7,927 bases of DNA from IMG/VR virus record IMGVR_UViG_2713896776_000004; one strand, written 5' to 3'. Made by a program: the position numbers and the translations under genes. This document shows, piece after piece, positions 1 to 7,927 of this stretch (position 1 is its first letter; every line of letters begins with the position of its first letter). The notes under the pieces were generated by a model, which saw nothing but the letters and a program-made list of their open reading frames with translations, made no database searches and was not told where the DNA came from. The DNA is from a virus. Lineage: Duplodnaviria > Heunggongvirae > Uroviricota > Caudoviricetes.

Positions 1-60
1 GACAAAGTCATCGGGCATTATCTGAACATAAAACACTATCAATAAGTTGGAGTCATTACC
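1..60 (+). mobile_element. IS1 terminal fragment: 3' end of insB plus right inverted repeat
   Basis: Frame 1 of nt 1-45 reads DKVIGHYLNIKHYQ*, which I recognise as the InsB C-terminus. The sequence ends ...AATAAGTTGGAGTCATTACC at nt 60, the IS1 terminal inverted repeat. Confidence 0.9.
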
Positions 61-150
61 GGCATCTTCAGTAAATACTGGGTTACTGATAGTGACACCA
101 ATTTCAAAACAACCTTCAGACGTATTAACGTTTGGTAATAACGTTTTCAT
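61..150 (-). pseudogene. dicB: dicB 5' fragment (codons 1-30), truncated by the IS1 end
   Basis: The reverse complement of 61-150 starts at ATG (148-150) and reads MKTLLPNVNTSEGCFEIGVTISNPVFTEDA, matching the DicB N-terminus as I remember it. The frame runs straight into the IS1 terminus at nt 60. A GAGGA Shine-Dalgarno lies at 158-162 on the - strand. Confidence 0.7.
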
Positions 151-167
151 TATCGCGTCCTCAACAA

Positions 168-315
168 TGAATTTTGTGATGCAGTGCCTGGTGCCTCCAG
201 GTGACGTTAACCAGTTAACAATTAACGCCGGATACAGAGAATCCACCCATAACACTGTTTTTGGTTTTAACTGTTCCGCGTGCGCTCAGCCGCATTCACC
301 ACATCACAAAATTCA
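168..315 (-). repeat. 14-bp perfect inverted repeat pair (168-181 and 302-315) flanking the dicF-dicB spacer
   Basis: TGAATTTTGTGATG at 168-181 and CATCACAAAATTCA at 302-315 are exact reverse complements. They sit just 3' of the DicF terminator and just 5' of the dicB Shine-Dalgarno. Confidence 0.5.
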
Positions 316-324
316 CTTTAAAAA

Positions 325-377
325 GGGCGGCAGAGCAGTCACGGAGTAAAACTGATACCGCCAAACGTCACCAGAAA
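325..377 (-). ncRNA. dicF: DicF small regulatory RNA (ftsZ/manX-targeting sRNA of the dicB operon)
   Basis: The reverse complement of 325-377 is TTTCTGGTGACGTTTGGCGGTATCAGTTTTACTCCGTGACTGCTCTGCCGCCC, followed by TTTTT. This matches the 53-nt DicF sequence from memory, including its GC-rich 3' stem and U-tract. Confidence 0.8.
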
Positions 378-402
378 ATTGATAACAGAGGGCGTTGCAG
401 CG

Positions 403-424
403 GGGTTGTCACTTAAGCGTATGG
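403..424 (+). repeat. Left copy of a 22-bp imperfect direct repeat (GGGTTGTCA core); also the half-site of a 9-bp inverted repeat with 431-439
   Basis: GGGTTGTCACTTAAGCGTATGG at 403-424 matches GGGTTGTCAGTTAAACTCGTGG at 1956-1977 at 17 of 22 positions, with an identical 9-mer core. TGACAACCC at 431-439 is the reverse complement of the core. Confidence 0.4.
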
Positions 425-755
425 TCAACCTGACAACCCGGTGTCCTCAACGGGGAAGGAATAACCCCGCCATACTTACCGCCGCGCCATTTCGCGGGTT
501 GCCACAACCGGAAGCGCACGGTCGACGAAAATTTAACGACAGGCTATCTATGAACCAGCTACCTCGCCGTGCGCTTTCGCGTTATGGTCTGACTTTTCAG
601 GGAAATATCCTTTCAGTAAACTGTCAGTGCCGGATGCTCACCCGTGTCCGGCGCACGCACTCCACCTCACCCGTGGAGAACTCCTTAATTACTAACCTTA
701 GCTTTGTTGATTAGCTACTAACGCGGGTAGCCGCGTGTCCACTATTGCTGGGTAA

Positions 756-1685
756 GATCAACCATCTTACGGTGAACTGATCCAGATTGATGGCTCACCT
801 CATGACTGGTTTGAAAATCGAGGCCCCAGATGTACACTGATCGTTTTCATTGATGATGCCGCCAGTGCGTTGATGGCGTTGCGTTTTGTGCCTGCTGAAA
901 CAACCCGGGCTTACATGGAAACCCTCCGGGGTTACCTTAATGATCATGGCGTACCGCTCGCTCTCTACTCTGATAGACACAGTATATTCAGGGTAAATAA
1001 CCCAGAGCGGGAAGGTGAGCTGACCCAGTTCACTCGTGCGATAAAGACACTGGGCATCGAGCCAATCCATGCCAACAGCCCGCAGGCAAAAGGGCGGGTA
1101 GAGCGCGCCAATCAGACACTACAGGACAGGCTGGTCAAAGAAATGCGGCTTCAGAATATCAGTGATATTGAAACAGCAAATGCATGGTTGCCGACTTTTA
1201 TTGAAGCCTATAACAACCGGTTCGCTACGTCGCCTCGTACTACTGATAATGCTCATCTTGATGTGCACCATTCTGAAGAGGAACTGGGTTATATCTTCAG
1301 CCTACAGGCGAAGCGCGTTCTGTCTAAAAATCTCACTTTCCAGTACAAAAGCAGTGCGTTTCAGGTACGCAGTGAGAGCCGGGGATATCGACTTAGGCAT
1401 TCGGTTGTTACTGTATGCGAGAACTTTGACGGTGAAATTAACGTTCTGTATGACGGGAAAGCGCTGGGCTGGGAAAAGTATGTTGATGGCCCGGAGCCTA
1501 TACCACTGGATGATGAAAAGAGTGTCCATGAACGAGTGGATAATGCCCGTATTGATTTACGCTCAAAATACTATGTTAAACCTAAAGCTGACCATCCCTG
1601 GCTTACGCGCCGAACGCAAAGTCATCAGCAAGTTAAGCCCCCGAAGTTACCTAAAAAGAAGCCTGATCCCGATAAAAAAGATTGA
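756..1685 (+). pseudogene. rve (integrase-core) DDE transposase remnant, N-terminal domain missing
   Basis: The open frame from 756 contains IQIDGSPHDWFE...LIVFIDDAAS...LYSDRHSIF...ANSPQAKGRVERANQTLQDRL, a D, D, E integrase-core pattern, and ends in a lysine-rich tail. An in-frame stop at 753-755 leaves no room for an N-terminal DNA-binding domain. The first ATG is at 873. The IS family is not assigned. Confidence 0.6.
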
Positions 1686-1739
1686 AACCAAGATCGATTC
1701 GGTTGAGTGCATATCCATTCATAGGGTAGATTCTTAAGT

Positions 1740-1805
1740 CGCGTTTCTGGTGTTCATTTTCGGGTGGTTTGTTACTTGTTTTACCGGGGATATGCCAGAA
1801 ACGCG
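1740..1805. repeat. 11-bp perfect inverted repeat with a 44-nt spacer, just after the transposase remnant
   Basis: CGCGTTTCTGG at 1740-1750 and CCAGAAACGCG at 1795-1805 are exact reverse complements. Confidence 0.4.
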
Positions 1806-1955
1806 CTGAGTCAGTCTGGGCGGTGCGCGTAATGAGGCGTTATGGTAAATAGCCTATGCTAATGTCCGCTAAGAGCAAGAAGCGGAAGTTGGCAGTTTTG
1901 TGGACTGTCCCCACAAAAGTGACTACAGAAATAGTTGCAATTCATAATTGATCAT

Positions 1956-1977
1956 GGGTTGTCAGTTAAACTCGTGG
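1956..1977 (+). repeat. Right copy of the 22-bp imperfect direct repeat (GGGTTGTCA core)
   Basis: See the 403-424 entry; 17 of 22 positions are identical, including the 9-mer GGGTTGTCA. Confidence 0.4.
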
Positions 1978-2084
1978 CGATTTAAATAGACTAATTGGGA
2001 GTGCGTCCATTACTTATATCTTGTAATGTTAACTATCAGAAATGATACAAAGATAATATGTCTTTAAAGAAAAGGCTGATGGCG

Positions 2085-2107
2085 AAAAGTGGCCCGATGA
2101 GGGCCAC
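2085..2107 (-). terminator. Putative intrinsic terminator downstream of flxA
   Basis: A 7-bp perfect stem GTGGCCC/GGGCCAC with a 5-nt loop lies at 2089-2107. On the - strand it is followed by TTTTCGCC, a short U-run, so it is probably weak. Confidence 0.4.
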
Positions 2108-2121
2108 AATACGGCTGTCAC

Positions 2122-2454
2122 TTAGACGTAAATATCAATGGTGCCAGCGGTATTTGTATCGTCTTTTTTCTCTTCTTTTTTATCAGGCTGAACTGTCGCG
2201 TCTTCATTCTTTTTCTCTGCCTGCTGCCTTAACAACTGCTCCAGTTGAGCCCAGAGGCTTTCAATTTGCTTCTGTACCAATGCAGCCATTTCTTTTTTCT
2301 GCTGTGTCGTCATCCCCTCTTCCGATGAGATTTTCCCAAGCTTTTCAGTCAGCACCTGAATTTGTCTTGTGATTTTGGCTATTTCTGATGTTCCTTCCGG
2401 GGCGGAGTTGTTTGAAATAACGGTTGAGGTATTTCCCTGAATTGTGACAGACAT
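2122..2454 (-). CDS. flxA: FlxA (FliA-regulated prophage protein)
   Basis: The 110-aa translation MSVTIQGNTSTVISNNSAPEGTSEIAKITRQ...TAGTIDIYV matches FlxA of the Qin prophage as I recall it. A GGAG Shine-Dalgarno precedes the ATG and a sigma28 promoter lies upstream. Confidence 0.9.
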   Translation of the reverse strand: MSVTIQGNTSTVISNNSAPEGTSEIAKITRQIQVLTEKLGKISSEEGMTTQQKKEMAALVQKQIESLWAQLEQLLRQQAEKKNEDATVQPDKKEEKKDDTNTAGTIDIYV

Positions 2455-2477
2455 AGATTTCTCCTTTTAAAAAAGCA

Positions 2478-2504
2478 CTATCGGCATGAACAAAAAAATC
2501 TTTA
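2478..2504 (-). promoter_or_regulatory. sigma28 (FliA) class-3 flagellar-type promoter for flxA
   Basis: The - strand reads TAAAGATT, then an 11-nt spacer, then GCCGATAG. The consensus is TAAAGTTT-N11-GCCGATAA. It sits about 25-50 nt upstream of the flxA start. Confidence 0.75.
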
Positions 2505-2656
2505 ATCGTATTTCTTGTGTCATTAATTGTTTGATGTTCAGATTGTTTTCCTCGCGGGCTGGCGCGCCTCAGAAAGTAAAGCTTGTTGACAGGGGTAAAC
2601 GTTCGGCAATAATTTTCTGCCGCATGCGGGTGTTGCATAAAACGTGTTACGTTCCT

Positions 2657-2962
2657 TTATCGACAGGTCAGGTCACCGCTCACCCGCCGACGAGAAAGCA
2701 ACACTGACATGCTAAAGCAAAAAATAGATGAATAAGTTGAGTTGTGCATATGTAGCCTGACCGTCACAAAGTATATGGTGTCTGTACCAGTAAGATGATG
2801 GCCGGACTCTTTAAAAACGAGCTGACCTGCACAATACAGGATGGACTTAGCAATGGCTGCTCCTGGCAGAAAGCGGACAGTGATCACCGTTCTTACGACT
2901 ACTTTCTGACTTCCTTCGTGACTTGCCCTAAGCATGTTGTAGTGCGATACTTGTAATGACAT
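2657..2962 (-). CDS. Doubtful 101-aa ORF, possibly the ydfV-equivalent reading frame
   Basis: This is a 101-aa ORF between flxA and relB, co-directional with flxA. Its length and position fit my memory of ydfV in K-12. The composition is poor (Ser/Arg/Val-rich) and the start codon lies inside the relBE operator, so it may not be expressed. Confidence 0.25.
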   Translation of the reverse strand: MSLQVSHYNMLRASHEGSQKVVVRTVITVRFLPGAAIAKSILYCAGQLVFKESGHHLTGTDTIYFVTVRLHMHNSTYSSIFCFSMSVLLSRRRVSGDLTCR

Positions 2963-2986
2963 TTGTAATTACAAGAGGTGTAAGAC
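2923..2986 (+). promoter_or_regulatory. relBE promoter and operator (relO)
   Basis: Operator repeats TTGTAAT-gacat-TTGTAATTACAA lie at 2951-2974; the last 12 nt are a perfect palindrome. A candidate -35 TTGCCC (2923-2928) and -10 GATACT (2946-2951) are 17 nt apart. The promoter elements are tentative. Confidence 0.6.
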
Positions 2987-3226
2987 ATGGGTAGCATTAA
3001 CCTGCGTATTGACGATGAACTTAAAGCGCGTTCTTACGCCGCGCTTGAAAAAATGGGTGTAACTCCTTCTGAAGCGCTTCGTCTCATGCTCGAGTATATC
3101 GCTGACAATGAACGCTTGCCGTTCAAACAGACACTCCTGAGTGATGAAGATGCTGAACTTGTGGAGATAGTGAAAGAACGGCTTCGTAATCCTAAGCCAG
3201 TACGTGTGACGCTGGATGAACTCTGA
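2987..3226 (+). CDS. relB: RelB antitoxin
   Basis: The 79-aa translation MGSINLRIDDELKARSYAALEKMGVTPSEALRLMLEYIADNERLPFKQTLLSDEDAELVEIVKERLRNPKPVRVTLDEL is near-identical to E. coli RelB from memory. Its stop overlaps the relE start (TGATG). Confidence 0.95.
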   Translation: MGSINLRIDDELKARSYAALEKMGVTPSEALRLMLEYIADNERLPFKQTLLSDEDAELVEIVKERLRNPKPVRVTLDEL

Positions 3227-3513
3227 TGGCGTATTTTCTGGATTTTGACGAGCGGGCACTAAAGGAATGGCGAAAGCTGGGCTCGACGGTACGTGAACAG
3301 TTGAAAAAGAAGCTGGTTGAAGTACTTGAGTCACCCCGGATTGAAGCAAACAAGCTCCGTGGTATGCCTGATTGTTACAAGATTAAGCTCCGGTCTTCAG
3401 GCTATCGCCTTGTATACCAGGTTATAGACGAGAAAGTTGTCGTTTTCGTGATTTCTGTTGGGAAAAGAGAACGCTCGGAAGTATATAGCGAGGCGGTCAA
3501 ACGCATTCTCTGA
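3226..3513 (+). CDS. relE: RelE mRNA-interferase toxin
   Basis: The 95-aa translation MAYFLDFDERALKEWRKLGSTVREQLKKKL...VISVGKRERSEVYSEAVKRIL matches RelE. It is translationally coupled to relB. Confidence 0.95.
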   Translation: MAYFLDFDERALKEWRKLGSTVREQLKKKLVEVLESPRIEANKLRGMPDCYKIKLRSSGYRLVYQVIDEKVVVFVISVGKRERSEVYSEAVKRIL

Positions 3514-3584
3514 ACCAAAGCATGACATCTCTGTTTCGCACCGAAGGTGACACTTCTGCTTTGCGTTGACAGGAGAAGCAGGCT

Positions 3585-3740
3585 ATGAAGCAGCAAAAGG
3601 CGATGTTAATCGCCCTGATCGTCATCTGTTTAACCGTCATAGTGACGGCACTGGTAACGAGGAAAGACCTCTGCGAGGTACGAATCCGAACCGGCCAGAC
3701 GGAGGTCGCTGTCTTCACAGCTTACGAACCTGAGGAGTAA
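3585..3740 (+). CDS. hokD: HokD (RelF), Hok-family small membrane toxin
   Basis: This 51-aa ORF is below the ORF-track size cutoff. It reads MKQQKAMLIALIVICLTVIVTALVTRKDLCEVRIRTGQTEVAVFTAYEPEE, with a hydrophobic helix and the Hok C-terminal motif. An AGGAG lies 11 nt upstream of the ATG. Confidence 0.9.
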   Translation: MKQQKAMLIALIVICLTVIVTALVTRKDLCEVRIRTGQTEVAVFTAYEPEE

Positions 3741-3808
3741 GAGACTCGGCGAGTGAGAAATCCCTCGCCACCTCTGATGTGGCAGGCATCCTCAACGCAC
3801 CCGCACTT

Positions 3809-3840
3809 AACCCGCTTCGGCGGGTTTTTGTTTTTATTTT
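3809..3840 (+). terminator. Intrinsic terminator of the relB-relE-hokD operon
   Basis: The stem is CCCGC-ttcg-GCGGG, followed by TTTTTGTTTTTATTTT. Confidence 0.8.
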
Positions 3841-3956
3841 CAACGCATTTGAAGTTCTGGATGGTGCCGGAATAGAATCAAAAATACTTAAGTAGCGCGC
3901 AGGGATAAGAGGGATGGTCCCTTAAAGGGGAGAGCTAATTATCCGGAAGGATTCTG

Positions 3957-4208
3957 ATGATGAACATCGAAGAACTGCGTAAAATTTTTTGTGAAGATGG
4001 CCTCTATGCTGTGTGCGTTGAAAATGGAAATATTGCTAGTCATTACCGCATTGTGTGTTTGCAAAAAAATGGGGCTGCGTTAATTAATTATGTGGATGCC
4101 CGAGTGACGGACGGATTTATCTTGCGCGACGGTGAGTTTGTCACTTCATTACAGGCATTGAAAGAGATCGGAATAAAAGCTGGCTTTTCTGCTTTTTCAG
4201 AAGAATAA
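3957..4208 (+). CDS. rem: Rem-like prophage protein of unknown function
   Basis: The 83-aa translation MMNIEELRKIFCEDGLYAVCVENGNIASHYRIVCLQKNGAALINYVDARVTDGFILRDGEFVTSLQALKEIGIKAGFSAFSEE fits my memory of Qin Rem. It has a GGAAGG ribosome-binding site, is AT-rich, and sits immediately downstream of hokD as in K-12. Confidence 0.75.
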   Translation: MMNIEELRKIFCEDGLYAVCVENGNIASHYRIVCLQKNGAALINYVDARVTDGFILRDGEFVTSLQALKEIGIKAGFSAFSEE

Positions 4209-4274
4209 ACTCATCTACAATCTTGCGCGGGGCTGAACTCCCGCTGAGTAACACCGTGCCACCGGAGAAAACCG

Positions 4275-4553
4275 ATGGCACGCAACGCAAAATATTACAA
4301 TCATGATAATTCGACCGTTCTTGCCCACACGCACGAGCGGTATTCTCACGCATTTAAGTCAGACTGGTACCAGCATCCCCCATGCACTGAAGAACAGGCC
4401 GAATGGCTCATTCAGTGTTACCGCAGGCGCGGATGCGAGGTTAAAAAAGCCCTTAGCCTCGACTACCGTCACTGGATAATCTCCGTCAGGCTTCCTTACT
4501 CCGAACGCCCACCGCGTCCGTCCCGCACATTCCAGCAACGCATCTGGAGGTAA
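4275..4553 (+). CDS. Hypothetical small Cys/His-containing prophage protein (92 aa), translationally coupled to the DUF968 gene
   Basis: A GGAG lies 7 nt upstream of the ATG at 4275. The translation MARNAKYYNHDNSTVLAHTHERYSHAFKSDWYQHPPCTEEQAEWLIQCYRRRGCEVKK... has no stops. Its TAA (4551-4553) sits between the GGAGG and the GTG start of the next gene. I could not assign a family. Confidence 0.5.
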   Translation: MARNAKYYNHDNSTVLAHTHERYSHAFKSDWYQHPPCTEEQAEWLIQCYRRRGCEVKKALSLDYRHWIISVRLPYSERPPRPSRTFQQRIWR

Positions 4554-4554
4554 C

Positions 4555-5604
4555 GTGCGGGTATTACTTCGACCTGTTCTGGTACCGGAACTCGGGCTGG
4601 TGATCGTTAAGCCGGGCCGTGAACCCATGCCGGTATTCCACAATACCCGGTTACTGGTGGAGCCGGAACCGAAAAGCATGCGTAATCTGCCGTCCGGGGT
4701 CGTTCCTGCCGCTCGCCAGCCGCTGGTGGAAGACAAAACATTGCTGCCGTTTTTCAGTAACGCACGGGTGATTCGTGCTGCTGGTGGTGCTGGTGCATTG
4801 TCTGACTGGCTGTTGCGCCATATTAAATCCTGCCAGTGGCCACACGGCGATTATCATCACAGCGAAACCGTCATTCACCGTTATGGTACCGGCGCAATGG
4901 TGTTGTGCTGGCACTGCGACAACCAGCTGCGTGACCAGACATCCGAATCACTCGAGCAACTAGCTCATCAAAACCTGTCAGCATGGATGATTGACGTCAT
5001 CGGTCACGCAATAAGCGGTACGCAGGAGCGTGAATTATCTCTGGCTGAATTATCCTGGTGGGCGGTCCGCAATCAGGTGGCGGACGCGCTACCGGAAGCG
5101 GTATTACGTCGTTCGCTGGGGTTGCGTGCGGAAAAAATCCGCTCAATGTACCGTGAAAGCGACATCGTACCGGGAGAGCAGACCGCCACCAGCATACTGA
5201 AACAGCGCACAAAAAATCTTGCACCGTTGCCTCACGCCCACCAGCAACAAAACCCATCACAAGAAAAGACGGTGGTAAGCATCACCGTTGATCCAGAGTC
5301 TCCGGAATCTTTCATGAAGCTGCCTAAACGTCACCGTTGGGTTAAGGAGAAATACACACGCTGGGTTAAGACACAGCCGTGTGCTTGCTGCGGTATGCCA
5401 GCCGACGATCCGCATCATCTGATTGGTCACGGGCAGGGCGGAATGGGAACCAAAGCACATGATCTCTTTGTGTTGCCTTTGTGCAGAAAGCATCACGACG
5501 AGTTGCATACGGATACCGTGGCATTTGAAGAGAAGTATGGCTCCCAACTGGAGCTGATTTTTCGATTTATCGATCGCGCGCTGGCAATTGGTGTGCTGGC
5601 CTAA
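4555..5604 (+). CDS. ydfU: DUF968-family prophage protein with a C-terminal HNH-like motif (YdfU-like)
   Basis: The 349-aa ORF has a GTG start with GGAGG 4 nt upstream. The C-terminus contains CACCG...[10 protein letters not shown]...[10 protein letters not shown] (a Cys pair, His-His and H-x3-H), typical of a beta-beta-alpha-metal HNH fold. A second Cys/His cluster ([11 protein letters not shown]...LCWHCDN) lies near residues 93-122. The size and position after rem match K-12 ydfU. Confidence 0.8.
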
Positions 5605-5621
5605 TTTTGTGGAGTAAGTTG

Positions 5622-5999
5622 ATGCGTGATATTCAGATGGTTCTTGAGCGTTGGGGGGCATGGGCTGCTAATAATCATGAAGATGTGACCTGGTCGTCCA
5701 TTGCCGCCGGTTTTAAGGGATTAATTCCTTCAAAAGTAAGATCTCGTCCGCAATGCTGTGACGATGACGCGATGATCATTTGTGAATGTATGGCTCGCCT
5801 GAAAAAAAACAACAGCGATTTACATGATTTATTGGTGGACTATTATGTCGGCGGCATGACTTTTATGGCGCTTGCACGTAAGCATGGGCGATCTGATTGT
5901 TGGGTTGGCAGGATGCTCCAGAAAGCTGAGGGCGTAGTGGAGGGCATGCTGATGGTGTTGGATCTCCGATTGGAGATGGATGCTGATTGTTCGAAATAA
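5622..5999 (+). CDS. Late-gene antiterminator Q (small phage-21/QuuD-like class)
   Basis: ATG at 5622 with GGAG 6 nt upstream gives 125 aa. The translation [34 protein letters not shown]...[37 protein letters not shown]... matches my memory of the DLP12 QuuD / phage 21 Q family. The ORF-track start at 5607 is a TTG that I consider less likely. Confidence 0.75.
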
Positions 6000-6011
6000 T
6001 TAAAGGAAAAG

Positions 6012-6040
6012 TTGCTGTCTGATTTTCATTAGTCTAACAT
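6012..6040 (+). promoter_or_regulatory. Candidate late promoter PR' (Q-utilisation region)
   Basis: -35 TTGCTG (6012-6017), a 17-nt spacer, then -10 TAACAT (6035-6040). It lies 13 nt after the Q stop and about 60 nt upstream of a strong terminator, as expected for a PR'/qut/tR' module. Confidence 0.4.
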
Positions 6041-6097
6041 TTTAAATGTTGGAATCGCAACGTAGTTATTATCATATAACAGCTTGTTTCCTGATTT

Positions 6098-6128
6098 AGC
6101 CAGCCTCCCCAAAGGCTGGTTTTTTTCT
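6098..6128 (+). terminator. tR'-like intrinsic terminator downstream of Q
   Basis: AGCCAGCC-tcccc aaa-GGCTGGTT stem followed by TTTTTTT. Confidence 0.75.
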
Positions 6129-6154
6129 AATAAGTATCATTTCGGGTGGGGATT

Positions 6155-6679
6155 TTATTGTTTAACCCATAATAGTTCATTGACATTGAATCCCAACTTT
6201 TGAGCGGTACGCACATAGTCTGCTTTTACATTATCTGGAATAGTTTGGGTCCTTGCCAGAATCCATAGGTATTCTCTGTTCGGACCACTGACAAGAGCAT
6301 ACTTATACTCATCATCCAGTTTGATTACATTATAGCCACCATAGAAGGGGCCAAAAAACGAAACTTTCAACGCTGCAGTTTTAGTATCTCCAGTAAAGTA
6401 TGCTTTACCTTCGCTCTCGCTCCATTTGTTTTTCGTTGGATCGTATCCACGGTTAAGTACGCGAATCCCTCCGTCGTTCCGTTTTTCATAAGTAGCGCTG
6501 ACCTGTTCCAGACCACGTTCGAACCAGTTCTCGAGGCGAGCTATTTCATACCATTTTCCGAGGTAGCGGTTGGCGTCAAAATTTGTAATCGGCTGCACAC
6601 CTTTAGGTGGTGTCGGGGCCTTACATGCTATAAGAGTGAAAGAGAGTGCAATGCCAGTCAACACAGGCCATAACTTCAT
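6155..6679 (-). CDS. Blc-family bacterial lipocalin, predicted outer-membrane lipoprotein
   Basis: The 174-aa translation has a signal peptide with lipobox LIAC (Cys19). Motifs NFDANRYLGKWYEIARLENWFERGLEQVSATY and GKAYFTGDTKTAALKVSFFGPFYGGYNVIKLD...YLWILARTQTI align with E. coli Blc at roughly half of positions, so it is divergent. The gene is AT-rich. Confidence 0.85.
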   Translation of the reverse strand: MKLWPVLTGIALSFTLIACKAPTPPKGVQPITNFDANRYLGKWYEIARLENWFERGLEQVSATYEKRNDGGIRVLNRGYDPTKNKWSESEGKAYFTGDTKTAALKVSFFGPFYGGYNVIKLDDEYKYALVSGPNREYLWILARTQTIPDNVKADYVRTAQKLGFNVNELLWVKQ

Positions 6680-6871
6680 AATAAATCCTGTACTTTTGAT
6701 AGTTGAGAGTAAGTATGAAAGATAGATGAGTACGACCGATCACTTAAAGAACTTTCCTACTATATTAGGAATAGTCAATAACAGAAAAATTGTCAGTGAT
6801 GAAGCCAGAAAGGCAATTTAGTCCGTGCACTACAAAGTTTATGTGTTAATGAATTAGTCAAGGGGGAGGAA

Positions 6872-7831
6872 ATGATAAAAAAACCTGTGATTGGGATCAG
6901 CGGTTGTTTGGGCGGTTCTGCTGTTCGTTTTGATGGTGGTCACAAAAGAGATGACTTTTTAATGGACAAATTAGTGGAATGGGTAACATTCAGACCAGTA
7001 TGTCCGGAAATGGCTATAGGGCTGCCAGTTCCGCGTCCTGCTCTACGACTTGTGCGCTCGAAGCAAGGAAATATACGGATGTGTTTCAGCCACGACCAGA
7101 ATGAGGATGTGACAGAGAGAATGACAGAGTTTAGTCGTTCTTATATGGACAAATTAAAGGATGTATCGGGGTTTGTGGTTTGTGCTAAATCTCCCAGCTG
7201 TGGCATGGAGCGCGTGCGTGTCTATGATGAAAATGGTAATCGAGGTCGTAAAGATGGAGTGGGACTATTTACGAGCACTTTGATGGAAAAGTTTTCCTGG
7301 CTACCGGTTGAAGAGGATGGGCGATTACATGATCCAGTGCTTCGTGAGAATTTTATTGAAAGAGTTTTTGCTTTGCATGAGCTCAATCACCTTTACAAGG
7401 AGAAATTATCAAGAAGAGAGTTATTAGCTTTTCATAGTCGTTATAAGCTTCAGTTGTTGGCGCATAGCCAGGCAGGCTATAAAGATATGGGACCATTTGT
7501 GGCTGCAATACACGAGTGGGCGGACCTTGAATCATACTTTGAGGTGTATCGTGATAATCTGATGGCGATTCTCAGAAAACCAGCATCACGTAAAAATCAC
7601 ACGAATGTGCTGATGCATATACAGGGGTATTTTAGTAATTACTTAAGTACACGCCAGCGTAAAGAGTTGAGCGAGGTTATACTTAACTATCGCTTTGGCA
7701 CATTGCCTCTTCTTGCGCCGTTGACTCTGCTGAAGCATTATCTGGGTGAGTATCCTAATGATTACTTGCTTACACAGAATTACTTCGATCCCTATCCGGA
7801 AGAACTGGCTCTAAGACTGATGGTGAATTAA
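6872..7831 (+). CDS. DUF523 (TudS-like Fe-S domain) - DUF1722 (YbgA-like) fusion protein
   Basis: A strong Shine-Dalgarno GGGGGAGG precedes the ATG at 6872. The 319-aa protein begins MIKKPVIGISGCLGGSAVRFDGGHKRDDF, with conserved Cys at 12, 44 (PVCPEM) and 104/110 (CAKSPSCG). The C-terminal half resembles YbgA/DUF1722. The gene is AT-rich. Confidence 0.8.
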   Translation: MIKKPVIGISGCLGGSAVRFDGGHKRDDFLMDKLVEWVTFRPVCPEMAIGLPVPRPALRLVRSKQGNIRMCFSHDQNEDVTERMTEFSRSYMDKLKDVSGFVVCAKSPSCGMERVRVYDENGNRGRKDGVGLFTSTLMEKFSWLPVEEDGRLHDPVLRENFIERVFALHELNHLYKEKLSRRELLAFHSRYKLQLLAHSQAGYKDMGPFVAAIHEWADLESYFEVYRDNLMAILRKPASRKNHTNVLMHIQGYFSNYLSTRQRKELSEVILNYRFGTLPLLAPLTLLKHYLGEYPNDYLLTQNYFDPYPEELALRLMVN

Positions 7832-7867
7832 CTGTATGCGATATCATCTGAAAGTGATGAGTTCCTG

Positions 7868-7927
7868 GGTAATGACTCCAACTTATTGATAGTGTTTTAT
7901 GTTCAGATAATGCCCGATGACTTTGTC
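7868..7927 (-). mobile_element. IS1 terminal fragment (right inverted repeat end), inverted relative to the copy at 1-60
   Basis: GGTAATGACTCCAACTTATTGATAG... at 7868-7927 is the exact reverse complement of nt 1-60. Confidence 0.9.

Follow-up and report, generated by a model that had tools for sequence, protein, structure and literature searches.

The 7,927-nt window, by which we mean the whole stretch of DNA analysed, is very probably a complete short-read contig that ended on both sides where the assembler met the multicopy 768-bp element IS1. Equally probably, as part of the same explanation, the two IS1 copies around its 7,807-bp interior arose in place by separate events, and the segment neither moved nor flipped. 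One IS1 would have entered codon 30 of dicB by simple insertion, generating a 9-bp duplication. The other would have landed 36 nt after a YbgA-family gene, within an AT-rich region that is hot for IS1, and 5.16 kb on the side of its left inverted repeat (IRL) would have been lost through an IS1-adjacent deletion or IS1–IS1 recombination. Separate arrivals of this kind would amount to ordinary IS-driven prophage decay and not to a transposon that has moved. Formally the structure is 'pseudo-compound'; its history is one of IS-driven prophage erosion.

IS1 termini at the ends of the window

The two ends of the window form a perfect inverted repeat of 60 nt (100% complementary), a length for which the chance expectation in 7.9 kb is effectively zero (~1e-29). 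The repeated 60-mer corresponds, with 0–1 mismatch, to the final 60 nt of IS1 elements annotated at 768 bp in complete E. coli genomes. Each arm therefore represents IS1 nt 709–768, comprising the C terminus of InsB and the right inverted repeat (IRR):

1–60, plus strand: left IS1 end, last 60 nt of the element (709–768), with the last 14 codons and stop of InsB (1–46) and the IRR (38–60)
7868–7927, minus strand: right IS1 end, last 60 nt of the element (709–768, reverse complement), assigned by its match to the IS1 terminus

Translation of the left arm yields DKVIGHYLNIKHYQ followed by a stop codon at 44–46, the InsB C terminus found in full IS1 copies, and its IRR reads ATCAATAAGTTGGAGTCATTACC. 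The IRR points inward in both arms, placing the pair in inverted orientation. The first-pass annotation had described inward-facing, inverted IS1 3' termini, and the match over 60 of 60 nt agrees with this. The bodies of the two elements lie to the left and right of the window, respectively, truncated by the contig ends. Because the window edges cut both arms, 60 nt has no biological meaning as a length.

The same annotation had allowed that the window might be a draft contig interrupted within collapsed copies of IS1, and this is supported by the recurrence of the segment in other short-read assemblies with IS1 ends of varying length. In a MEGAHIT k141 contig (L018) with 100% identity to the window, the sequence extends 206 nt into IS1 at one end and 138 nt at the other, and a further contig (L019) includes 109 nt of IS1. 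For what is probably a third such contig, 7,860 nt long, its length and its 39-aa partial DicB'–IS1 product indicate about 27 nt of IS1 at each end. As the same segment carries different lengths of IS1 in different assemblies, arm length tracks the assembler, and the value of 60 nt is an assembly artefact. Both window ends stop equally far (60 nt) inside a multicopy repeat in the manner of repeat-collapsed de Bruijn-graph contig ends, from which we found them to differ in no respect. The region is also often fragmented in assemblies, since the YbgA-family gene lies on 2–10-kb contigs in 8,718 of 17,794 index blocks.

A collapsed repeat would be expected to give identical 60-nt ends even if the two IS1 ends did not both adjoin the segment in the genome, as in a chimeric contig or a mixed population, and the window by itself carries no proof of linkage. 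We regard such a pure artefact as most unlikely, because two independent assemblies (L018 and L019) reproduce both junctions base for base, both IS1 copies are traversed within one 4.82-Mb contig, and two complete genomes likewise contain the right junction.

The interior is a resident Qin-type prophage

The interior (61–7867) aligns as one colinear piece, with 2 mismatches, to the chromosome of EC09, where IS1 is absent from both edges of the corresponding segment. We mapped the EC09 annotation onto the window (window position = L001 position − 5940); with the matches named in each entry, the following features are assigned:

61–150, minus strand: dicB', codons 1–30 of the 62-codon cell-division inhibitor gene, broken by IS1 (EC09 comparison)
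61–69, no strand: inner copy of the 9-bp target-site duplication GGCATCTTC; the second copy lies directly outside the IRL of the left IS1 in L017
325–376, minus strand: intact gene for the small RNA DicF (Rfam RF00039, full model 1–52 matched at 76.7 bits; gathering threshold 48)
730–760, no strand: filler of 31 nt at a deletion joint, with no origin assigned, between K-12-type DNA on the left and ISEsa1 on the right
761–1415, plus strand: ISEsa1 (IS1202-like, ISNCY) transposase remnant, 5'-truncated, beginning 416 nt into the gene (L014 from 3890 onward)
1536–1685, plus strand: ydfW (EC09 annotation)
2122–2454, minus strand: flxA (Pfam FlxA on the identical L018 gene)
2657–2962, minus strand: ydfV (gene call and EC09 annotation)
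2987–3513, plus strand: relB–relE type II toxin–antitoxin pair (relB 2987–3226, relE 3226–3513; Pfam RelB, ParE_toxin)
3585–3740, plus strand: hokD type I toxin gene (Pfam HOK_GEF)
3957–4208, plus strand: rem (gene call, EC09 annotation)
4275–4553, plus strand: hypothetical 92-aa gene (gene call, EC09 annotation)
4555–5604, plus strand: ydfU/DUF968 (gene call, EC09 annotation)
5622–5999, plus strand: Q-family antiterminator gene (EC09 annotation)
6155–6679, minus strand: lipocalin (Blc-like) moron gene (gene call, EC09 annotation)
6872–7831, plus strand: YbgA-family (DUF523/DUF1722) gene (gene call, EC09 annotation)
7832–7867, no strand: first 36 nt of an AT-rich spacer, with the IS1 junction after ...GAGTTCCTG

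The gene order dicB–dicF...ydfW–flxA–ydfV–relBE–hokD–rem–ydfU–Q, beside int and rspAB, is of the Qin type, as judged from the EC09 annotation, gene calls and Pfam matches in L017, and the Rfam match to DicF. On this sequence comparison, the interior is native chromosomal DNA of a defective E. coli Qin-type cryptic lambdoid prophage beside rspAB. K-12-type Qin DNA (dicB–dicF–ydfC') stops at 729 and the interior of ISEsa1 starts at 761, with dicA, dicC and ydfABC absent at the joint; the EC09 pseudo-CDS of the ISEsa1 remnant corresponds to 777–1415. This deletion joint is common to EC09, L017, L018 and L019 only. At the left edge, the reading frame of the broken dicB continues into IS1 and encodes a 56-aa fusion product, and an exact-sequence cluster look-up returned the identical DicB'–IS1 protein as STG76741.1, which has a Pfam DicB match.

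A spanning relative links both IS1 copies to the segment

The 4.82-Mb contig of GCA_900448805.1 (L017) matches the entire window (1–7927) with a single mismatch, at position 5666 (T in the window) in the Q-family antiterminator gene. On this one molecule, a full 768-bp IS1 lies on each side of the segment, at L017rc 9314–10081 (+) on the left and 17889–18656 (−) on the right. The two copies are identical; insA and insB are open in each, and the A6C frameshift site lies at nt 307. Because both are read through, the inverted pair is real and resides on a single molecule, in line with the earlier proposal that two inverted copies flank the segment; they are neither unlinked nor in direct orientation. 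All three IS1 copies of L017 are identical over 768 of 768 nt, and an assembler mis-join across them is possible.

The earlier annotation had also suggested looking for 8–9-bp duplications outside the IS1 pair. The left IS1 of L017 is a simple insertion into dicB codon 30, with its own perfect 9-bp direct duplication of GGCATCTTC, a sequence present once in EC09 (L001 6001–6009). Its outer flank is colinear with EC09 through dicB–ydfD–exonuclease–xis–int–rspBA. At the flanks of the right IS1, no target-site duplication was found. Outside it, the sequence resumes at EC09 L001 18968, in native orientation toward nohA and terminase; 5,160 bp are therefore missing, including the holin, lysozyme, Rz, cold-shock and neighbouring genes, and this deletion accounts for the lack of a duplication. 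The segment itself is in native orientation relative to both flanks. These flanks were read in a relative with one mismatch, and L018 and L019 end before linkage across IS1 is reached; the genome of the window probably shares them.

These observations resemble IS1 behaviour in other E. coli cryptic lambdoid prophages of the Qin/DLP12 type, in which a 768-bp IS1, a 9-bp duplication at dicB, a copy without direct repeats, a deletion starting exactly at the IS1 terminus and an AT-rich target region have parallels; nothing essential differs, except that this pair of sites was found only in this clone. When IS1 deletes adjacent DNA, the element is left with no direct repeats around it (PMC9330008). 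The right IS1 likewise carries the adjacent-deletion signature known from intramolecular rearrangements of Tn9 and IS1 (one fixed terminus, no direct repeats, here with 5.16 kb lost), as relayed from Turlan & Chandler 1995 in PMC9330008. Tn9 has direct IS1 repeats, whereas those here are inverted, and the inversion outcome of the Tn9-type reaction is not seen in this segment.

Inversion would be another route to an inverted pair. A resident IS1 at the YbgA junction could have used dicB as the target of an intramolecular replicative transposition 'in trans', creating a second, inverted IS1 and flipping the 7.8-kb segment between them. This derivation predicts a pair with both IRRs inward and a contig indistinguishable from the window. 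IS1 transposition within the chromosome is chiefly replicative (PMC12428005), inversions are a known outcome for IS1 and Tn9 (PMC9330008), and the L017 copies are identical. The distribution of the junctions also fits an older donor and a newer target, as the right junction occurs in the complete genomes S30 and VE-T9 but a junction-specific search found no single-piece match to the left junction in 5,426 complete E. coli genomes. In L017, however, the segment runs in its native direction with respect to the DNA outside each IS1, and the left IS1 has a direct 9-bp duplication in place of the inverted 9-bp pair expected of this reaction. For this one-mismatch relative the scenario is rejected, and overall we consider it very unlikely. 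The suggestion that the window is an invertible segment fares no better, as the segment was nowhere observed in the inverted state, and L017, which supplies the sole copy read through on both sides, is colinear with EC09.

No sign that the unit has moved

The first-pass annotation likened the window to Tn1681, in which a heat-stable enterotoxin gene lies between inverted IS1 copies (PMC7554612). The likeness is real to the extent that a DNA segment is bracketed by two inverted copies of the same IS on one molecule (L017), and both copies are intact and identical, with open insA and insB. An IS1–7.8 kb–IS1 unit that transposed whole, or still does so, would use its two outer IRL ends. Past movement of this kind would be marked by a 9-bp direct repeat around the unit, yet none was found around it in L017. 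Immediately outside the unit lie GGCATCTTC to the left and GACATGAGG to the right, and the left-hand 9-mer has its partner in the inner flank of that same IS1. In contrast to Tn1681, the cargo is a resident prophage in its native place and orientation, colinear with the IS1-free EC09, with two IS1 copies of separate histories and no evidence of movement.

A second location was likewise absent from the collections searched. All records covering at least 80% of the window are E. coli genomes, with no plasmid records among them, and the five that were opened (EC09, NT1N31 and TUM9868, together with L010 and L014, which were reached through the YbgA look-up) all carry the segment at the Qin locus. 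Neither junction was hit by exact-pattern scans of the species-representative genome and metagenome collections (0 hits each); with one genome per species, the former is poorly suited to detecting a trait of an E. coli strain. When the whole window was compared by BLAST, matches H5 and H7 seemed to cover IS1 only through IS1 copies from elsewhere in the prophage that had been joined to them; these are not the window junctions. Taken together, a mobilized unit of the Tn1681 type is extremely improbable, and the data speak against its having moved.

The AT-rich spacer as a target for IS1

The full spacer in EC09 is 406 nt with 31% GC, and other strains have IS1 at six or more positions within it, making the AT-rich spacer after the YbgA-family gene a regional sink for IS1. 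Target duplications were kept in only 6 of the 20 IS1 copies examined. Five of the six spacer site classes have the same IS1 orientation, a bias that is not statistically significant.

A junction at exactly the same nucleotide, 36 nt beyond the gene ('YbgA +37'), is seen in three backgrounds, including S30 and VE-T9, and the IS1 variants there are only 95–97% identical between backgrounds. This divergence leans toward independent hits rather than an inherited junction. The last 2.2 kb of the window are nearly invariant across backgrounds (3 mismatches to S30), and recombination is therefore possible as a source of the right junction common to S30 and VE-T9. In the inverted IS1 pair of VE-T9, neither direct nor inverted 9-bp duplications were found; a junction search intended to date the two junctions of the right IS1 found no single-piece match to its outer IRL junction. 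The dicB codon 30 and YbgA +37 sites were found together only in this clone, represented by L017, L018 and the window.

A bolder reading is that, in prophages of the Qin/DLP12 type, the spacer that separates the Q/lipocalin/YbgA moron module from the lysis cassette is a recurrent, nucleotide-precise IS1 target, where selection may favour hits because they reduce late-gene and lysis expression and give rise to deletions, and that the 9.3-kb inverted-IS1 structure of this clone, with relBE, hokD and DicF, could now act as a nascent composite transposon or invertible segment. We consider this unlikely.

Implications

The case adds a further instance of cryptic-prophage erosion by IS1, with little significance beyond bookkeeping. 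A striking, perfect inverted repeat at the two ends of a window can be nothing more than a contig cut in a collapsed insertion sequence, and public long-contig assemblies can supply its true context when searched for the fusion open reading frame that a junction creates. In this prophage, erosion has interrupted dicB and removed the cold-shock genes together with those for holin, lysozyme and Rz, while relBE, hokD, DicF and the moron genes are kept.

The two ends of the window

Nucleotides 1–60 and 7868–7927 of the window are exact reverse complements of each other. The 60-mer corresponds to the final 60 nt of the annotated 768-bp IS1 in complete E. coli genomes (0–1 mismatch), and window nt 1 corresponds to IS1 nt 709 when a full IS1 is aligned to the longer short-read sister contig L018. 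Each arm encodes the InsB C terminus (...DKVIGHYLNIKHYQ, stop codon at 44–46) and then runs into the right inverted repeat (IRR). The bodies of the two IS1 copies are therefore external to the window, their IRRs facing inwards and in inverted orientation, as the first-pass annotation had read them. An inverted repeat of 60 nt is far beyond chance, yet it is part of a multicopy element; a query joining 35 nt of IS1 end to a single-copy dicB stretch matched 7 places in the median E. coli genome, mostly IS1 ends.

The length of the arms is not biological, because they end at the window edges and other assemblies hold other lengths of IS1. L018 (ENA ERZ19693104, MEGAHIT k141, 8,151 nt) is 100% identical over the entire window and extends 206 nt into IS1 at one end and 138 nt at the other, and a second sister contig, L019 (k111), carries 109 nt. 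A 7,860-nt NCBI contig is probably the same segment, judging from its length and its 39-amino-acid partial DicB′–IS1 product; this product implies an IS1 stretch of about 27 nt at the end where it is encoded. Equal arms at the two ends of a whole contig would be consistent with a graph assembler halting at a fixed distance inside a collapsed repeat. This variation among assemblies of identical DNA supports the earlier suggestion of a draft contig broken in collapsed IS1. The YbgA-family gene, beside the right end, was found on 2–10-kb contigs in 8,718 of 17,794 index blocks, indicating that the region is often fragmented in assemblies.

A resident Qin-type segment

Over its 7,807 nt, the sequence between the arms (nt 61–7867) differs by 2 mismatches from the E. 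coli EC09 chromosome, to which it aligns unbroken. The matching stretch belongs to a Qin-type cryptic lambdoid prophage adjoining int and rspBA, and neither of its edges carries IS1 in EC09.

Features of the segment between the IS1 ends
61–150, minus strand: dicB codons 1–30
325–376, minus strand: DicF RNA (Rfam, 76.7 bits)
730–760: deletion joint with a 31-nt bridge, GCCGCGTGTCCACTATTGCTGGGTAAGATCA
From 761: ISEsa1 transposase gene, 5′-truncated
Rest of the segment, in order: ydfW, flxA, ydfV, relBE, hokD, rem, hypothetical gene, ydfU, Q antiterminator, lipocalin, YbgA-family gene

The left IS1 interrupts dicB after codon 30, and the right IS1 lies 36 nt beyond the YbgA stop codon. At the deletion joint (729–761), K-12-type Qin DNA stops 12 nt into the 3′ end of ydfC and is followed by the interior of ISEsa1, with the loss of dicA, dicC and ydfABC; this joint was seen only in EC09, L018, L019 and the 4.82-Mb contig L017 described below. 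The block ISEsa1–ydfW–flxA–ydfV–relBE (window 761–3589) also occurs at 99.3–99.9% identity on many plasmids of Enterobacter, Klebsiella, Salmonella, Citrobacter and E. coli. In the single plasmid opened (L024, IncFIB/IncFII; 3085–6329), the block is preceded by an ISEsa1 transposase gene of full length and stops immediately ahead of hokD, which suggests that a Qin piece with relBE was mobilized, or else delivered, by ISEsa1.

Recovery of the flanking sequence

An identical contig would be expected from two independent insertions or from an IS1 duplicative inversion, so data from outside the window were needed. Neither junction appeared in scans of metagenomes or species-representative genomes, and the left junction was present in 0 of 5,426 complete E. 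coli genomes. Whichever IS1 copy dicB′ is read into, the predicted product is a 56-amino-acid fusion of 30 native and 26 IS1-encoded residues. The exact fusion is on record as STG76741.1, and the longest contig encoding it is L017 (GCA_900448805.1, UGBB01000002.1).

In window orientation, L017 matches nt 1–7927 with 1 mismatch, at position 5666 in the Q gene (codon 15, third base). The window and L018 have T here, and EC09, L017 and the complete genome S30 have G; L019 stops at window 3169, so that this position is outside its coverage. The T is a clone marker. The reverse complement of L017 (L017rc) contains full 768-bp IS1 copies at 9314–10081 (plus strand) and 17889–18656 (minus strand), continuing from the window ends. 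The inverted IS1 pair is thus real and present in one molecule, its flanks being read in a 1-mismatch relative. Both junctions are reproduced in independent assemblies, which contradicts a pure assembly artefact.

Separate histories of the two IS1 copies

In L017, the left IS1 is bordered by a perfect 9-bp direct duplication (...GTTAAT GGCATCTTC, IS1, GGCATCTTC AGTAAA...), and the sequence on its outer side stays colinear with that of EC09 across the remaining dicB, ydfD, an exonuclease gene, xis, int and rspBA. The left IS1 is a simple insertion. The right IS1 has no duplication (inner flank ...GAGTTCCTG, outer flank GACATGAGG...). Its outer flank picks up in the same orientation at position 18968 of the EC09 locus (L001), running on into nohA and terminase, and 5,160 bp of EC09 sequence are absent beside its left inverted repeat (IRL): an AraC-like HTH gene, essD, ydfR, rrrQ, rzpQ, cspI, ymcF, ynfR, ynfN, gnsB, ydfO and most of ynfO. 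In published IS1/Tn9 adjacent deletions, the element lacks direct repeats and the deletion begins exactly at its terminus (PMC9330008, section 5.2.1); the right IS1 matches on both counts. The loss may have arisen in this way, or by IS1–IS1 recombination, which could leave an equal outcome.

In L017, the direct duplication at the left IS1 and the native orientation of the segment relative to both flanks contradict a duplicative inversion. The invertible segment entertained in the first-pass annotation is not supported, as L017, the one assembly spanning the segment, has it in native orientation. Tn1681 is bounded by inverted IS1 (PMC7554612), and its likeness to the structure here is one of architecture only. 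The pair did not arrive as a unit, and a mobile composite transposon is not supported: the 9-bp duplication belongs to the left IS1, with none at the right IS1 and none enclosing the whole structure; the cargo is resident DNA that still occupies its native place; and no second context for the IS1–segment–IS1 unit was found among the chromosomes or plasmids searched.

A third, identical IS1 lies near speG/ynfB (L017rc 10–777), around 8.5 kb farther left than the left copy, with an 8-bp duplication (CTATTGTG). The 3 copies fall within 18.7 kb and have open reading frames.

Consequences for prophage genes

The ISEsa1-associated deletion, common to the IS1-free EC09, had earlier removed dicA, dicC and the promoter region from the dicB operon. 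Immediately upstream of the disrupted dicB, the DicF gene is still intact, despite the deletion of the operon promoter and repressor region. The lysis cassette is lost, and toxin–antitoxin genes, DicF and moron genes are kept. Both IS1 copies are transcribed towards the segment, the left on the strand opposite dicB and DicF and the right antisense to the YbgA gene, an arrangement that does not suggest gene activation by either.

An IS1 sink after the YbgA gene

The spacer past the YbgA gene (window 7832–7867; EC09 L001 13772–14177) adjoins the lysis cassette and is 406 nt long, with 31% GC compared with 46.5% for the window. Across strains it holds IS1 at no fewer than six positions (+15, +37, +105, +157, +213 and +225), in one orientation at 5 of the 6 and with intact 9-bp duplications at 3.

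The +37 junction (GATGAGTTCCTG joined to GGTAATGAC) recurs at the identical nucleotide and in the identical orientation in the complete genomes S30 and VE-T9, with VE-T9 carrying it in another prophage, located at ybhC/bio. The IRL-side flanks differ, and +37 never has a duplication in the three backgrounds. The IS1 copies of S30 and VE-T9 are 95.3% and 97.1% identical to that of L017, and the 2.2 kb adjoining +37 are nearly invariant between backgrounds. The site may be a hot spot hit with nucleotide precision, or recombination may have spread an old insertion.

Inverted, IRR-inward IS1 pairs also surround the lipocalin–YbgA module in the ybhC/bio prophage of VE-T9 (L005 6390–11892, around 4.0 kb enclosed) and beside corA in the complete genome YZB902 (L023 342–3513, around 1.6 kb enclosed); duplications of every kind were looked for at these two pairs and none was found.

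A duplication survives in only 6 of the 20 complete IS1 copies inspected across these loci, so rearranged IS1 is the rule here. This part of the prophage acts as an IS1 sink. The structure bracketing the window is ordinary decay of a cryptic prophage driven by IS1, and public assemblies already contain it.
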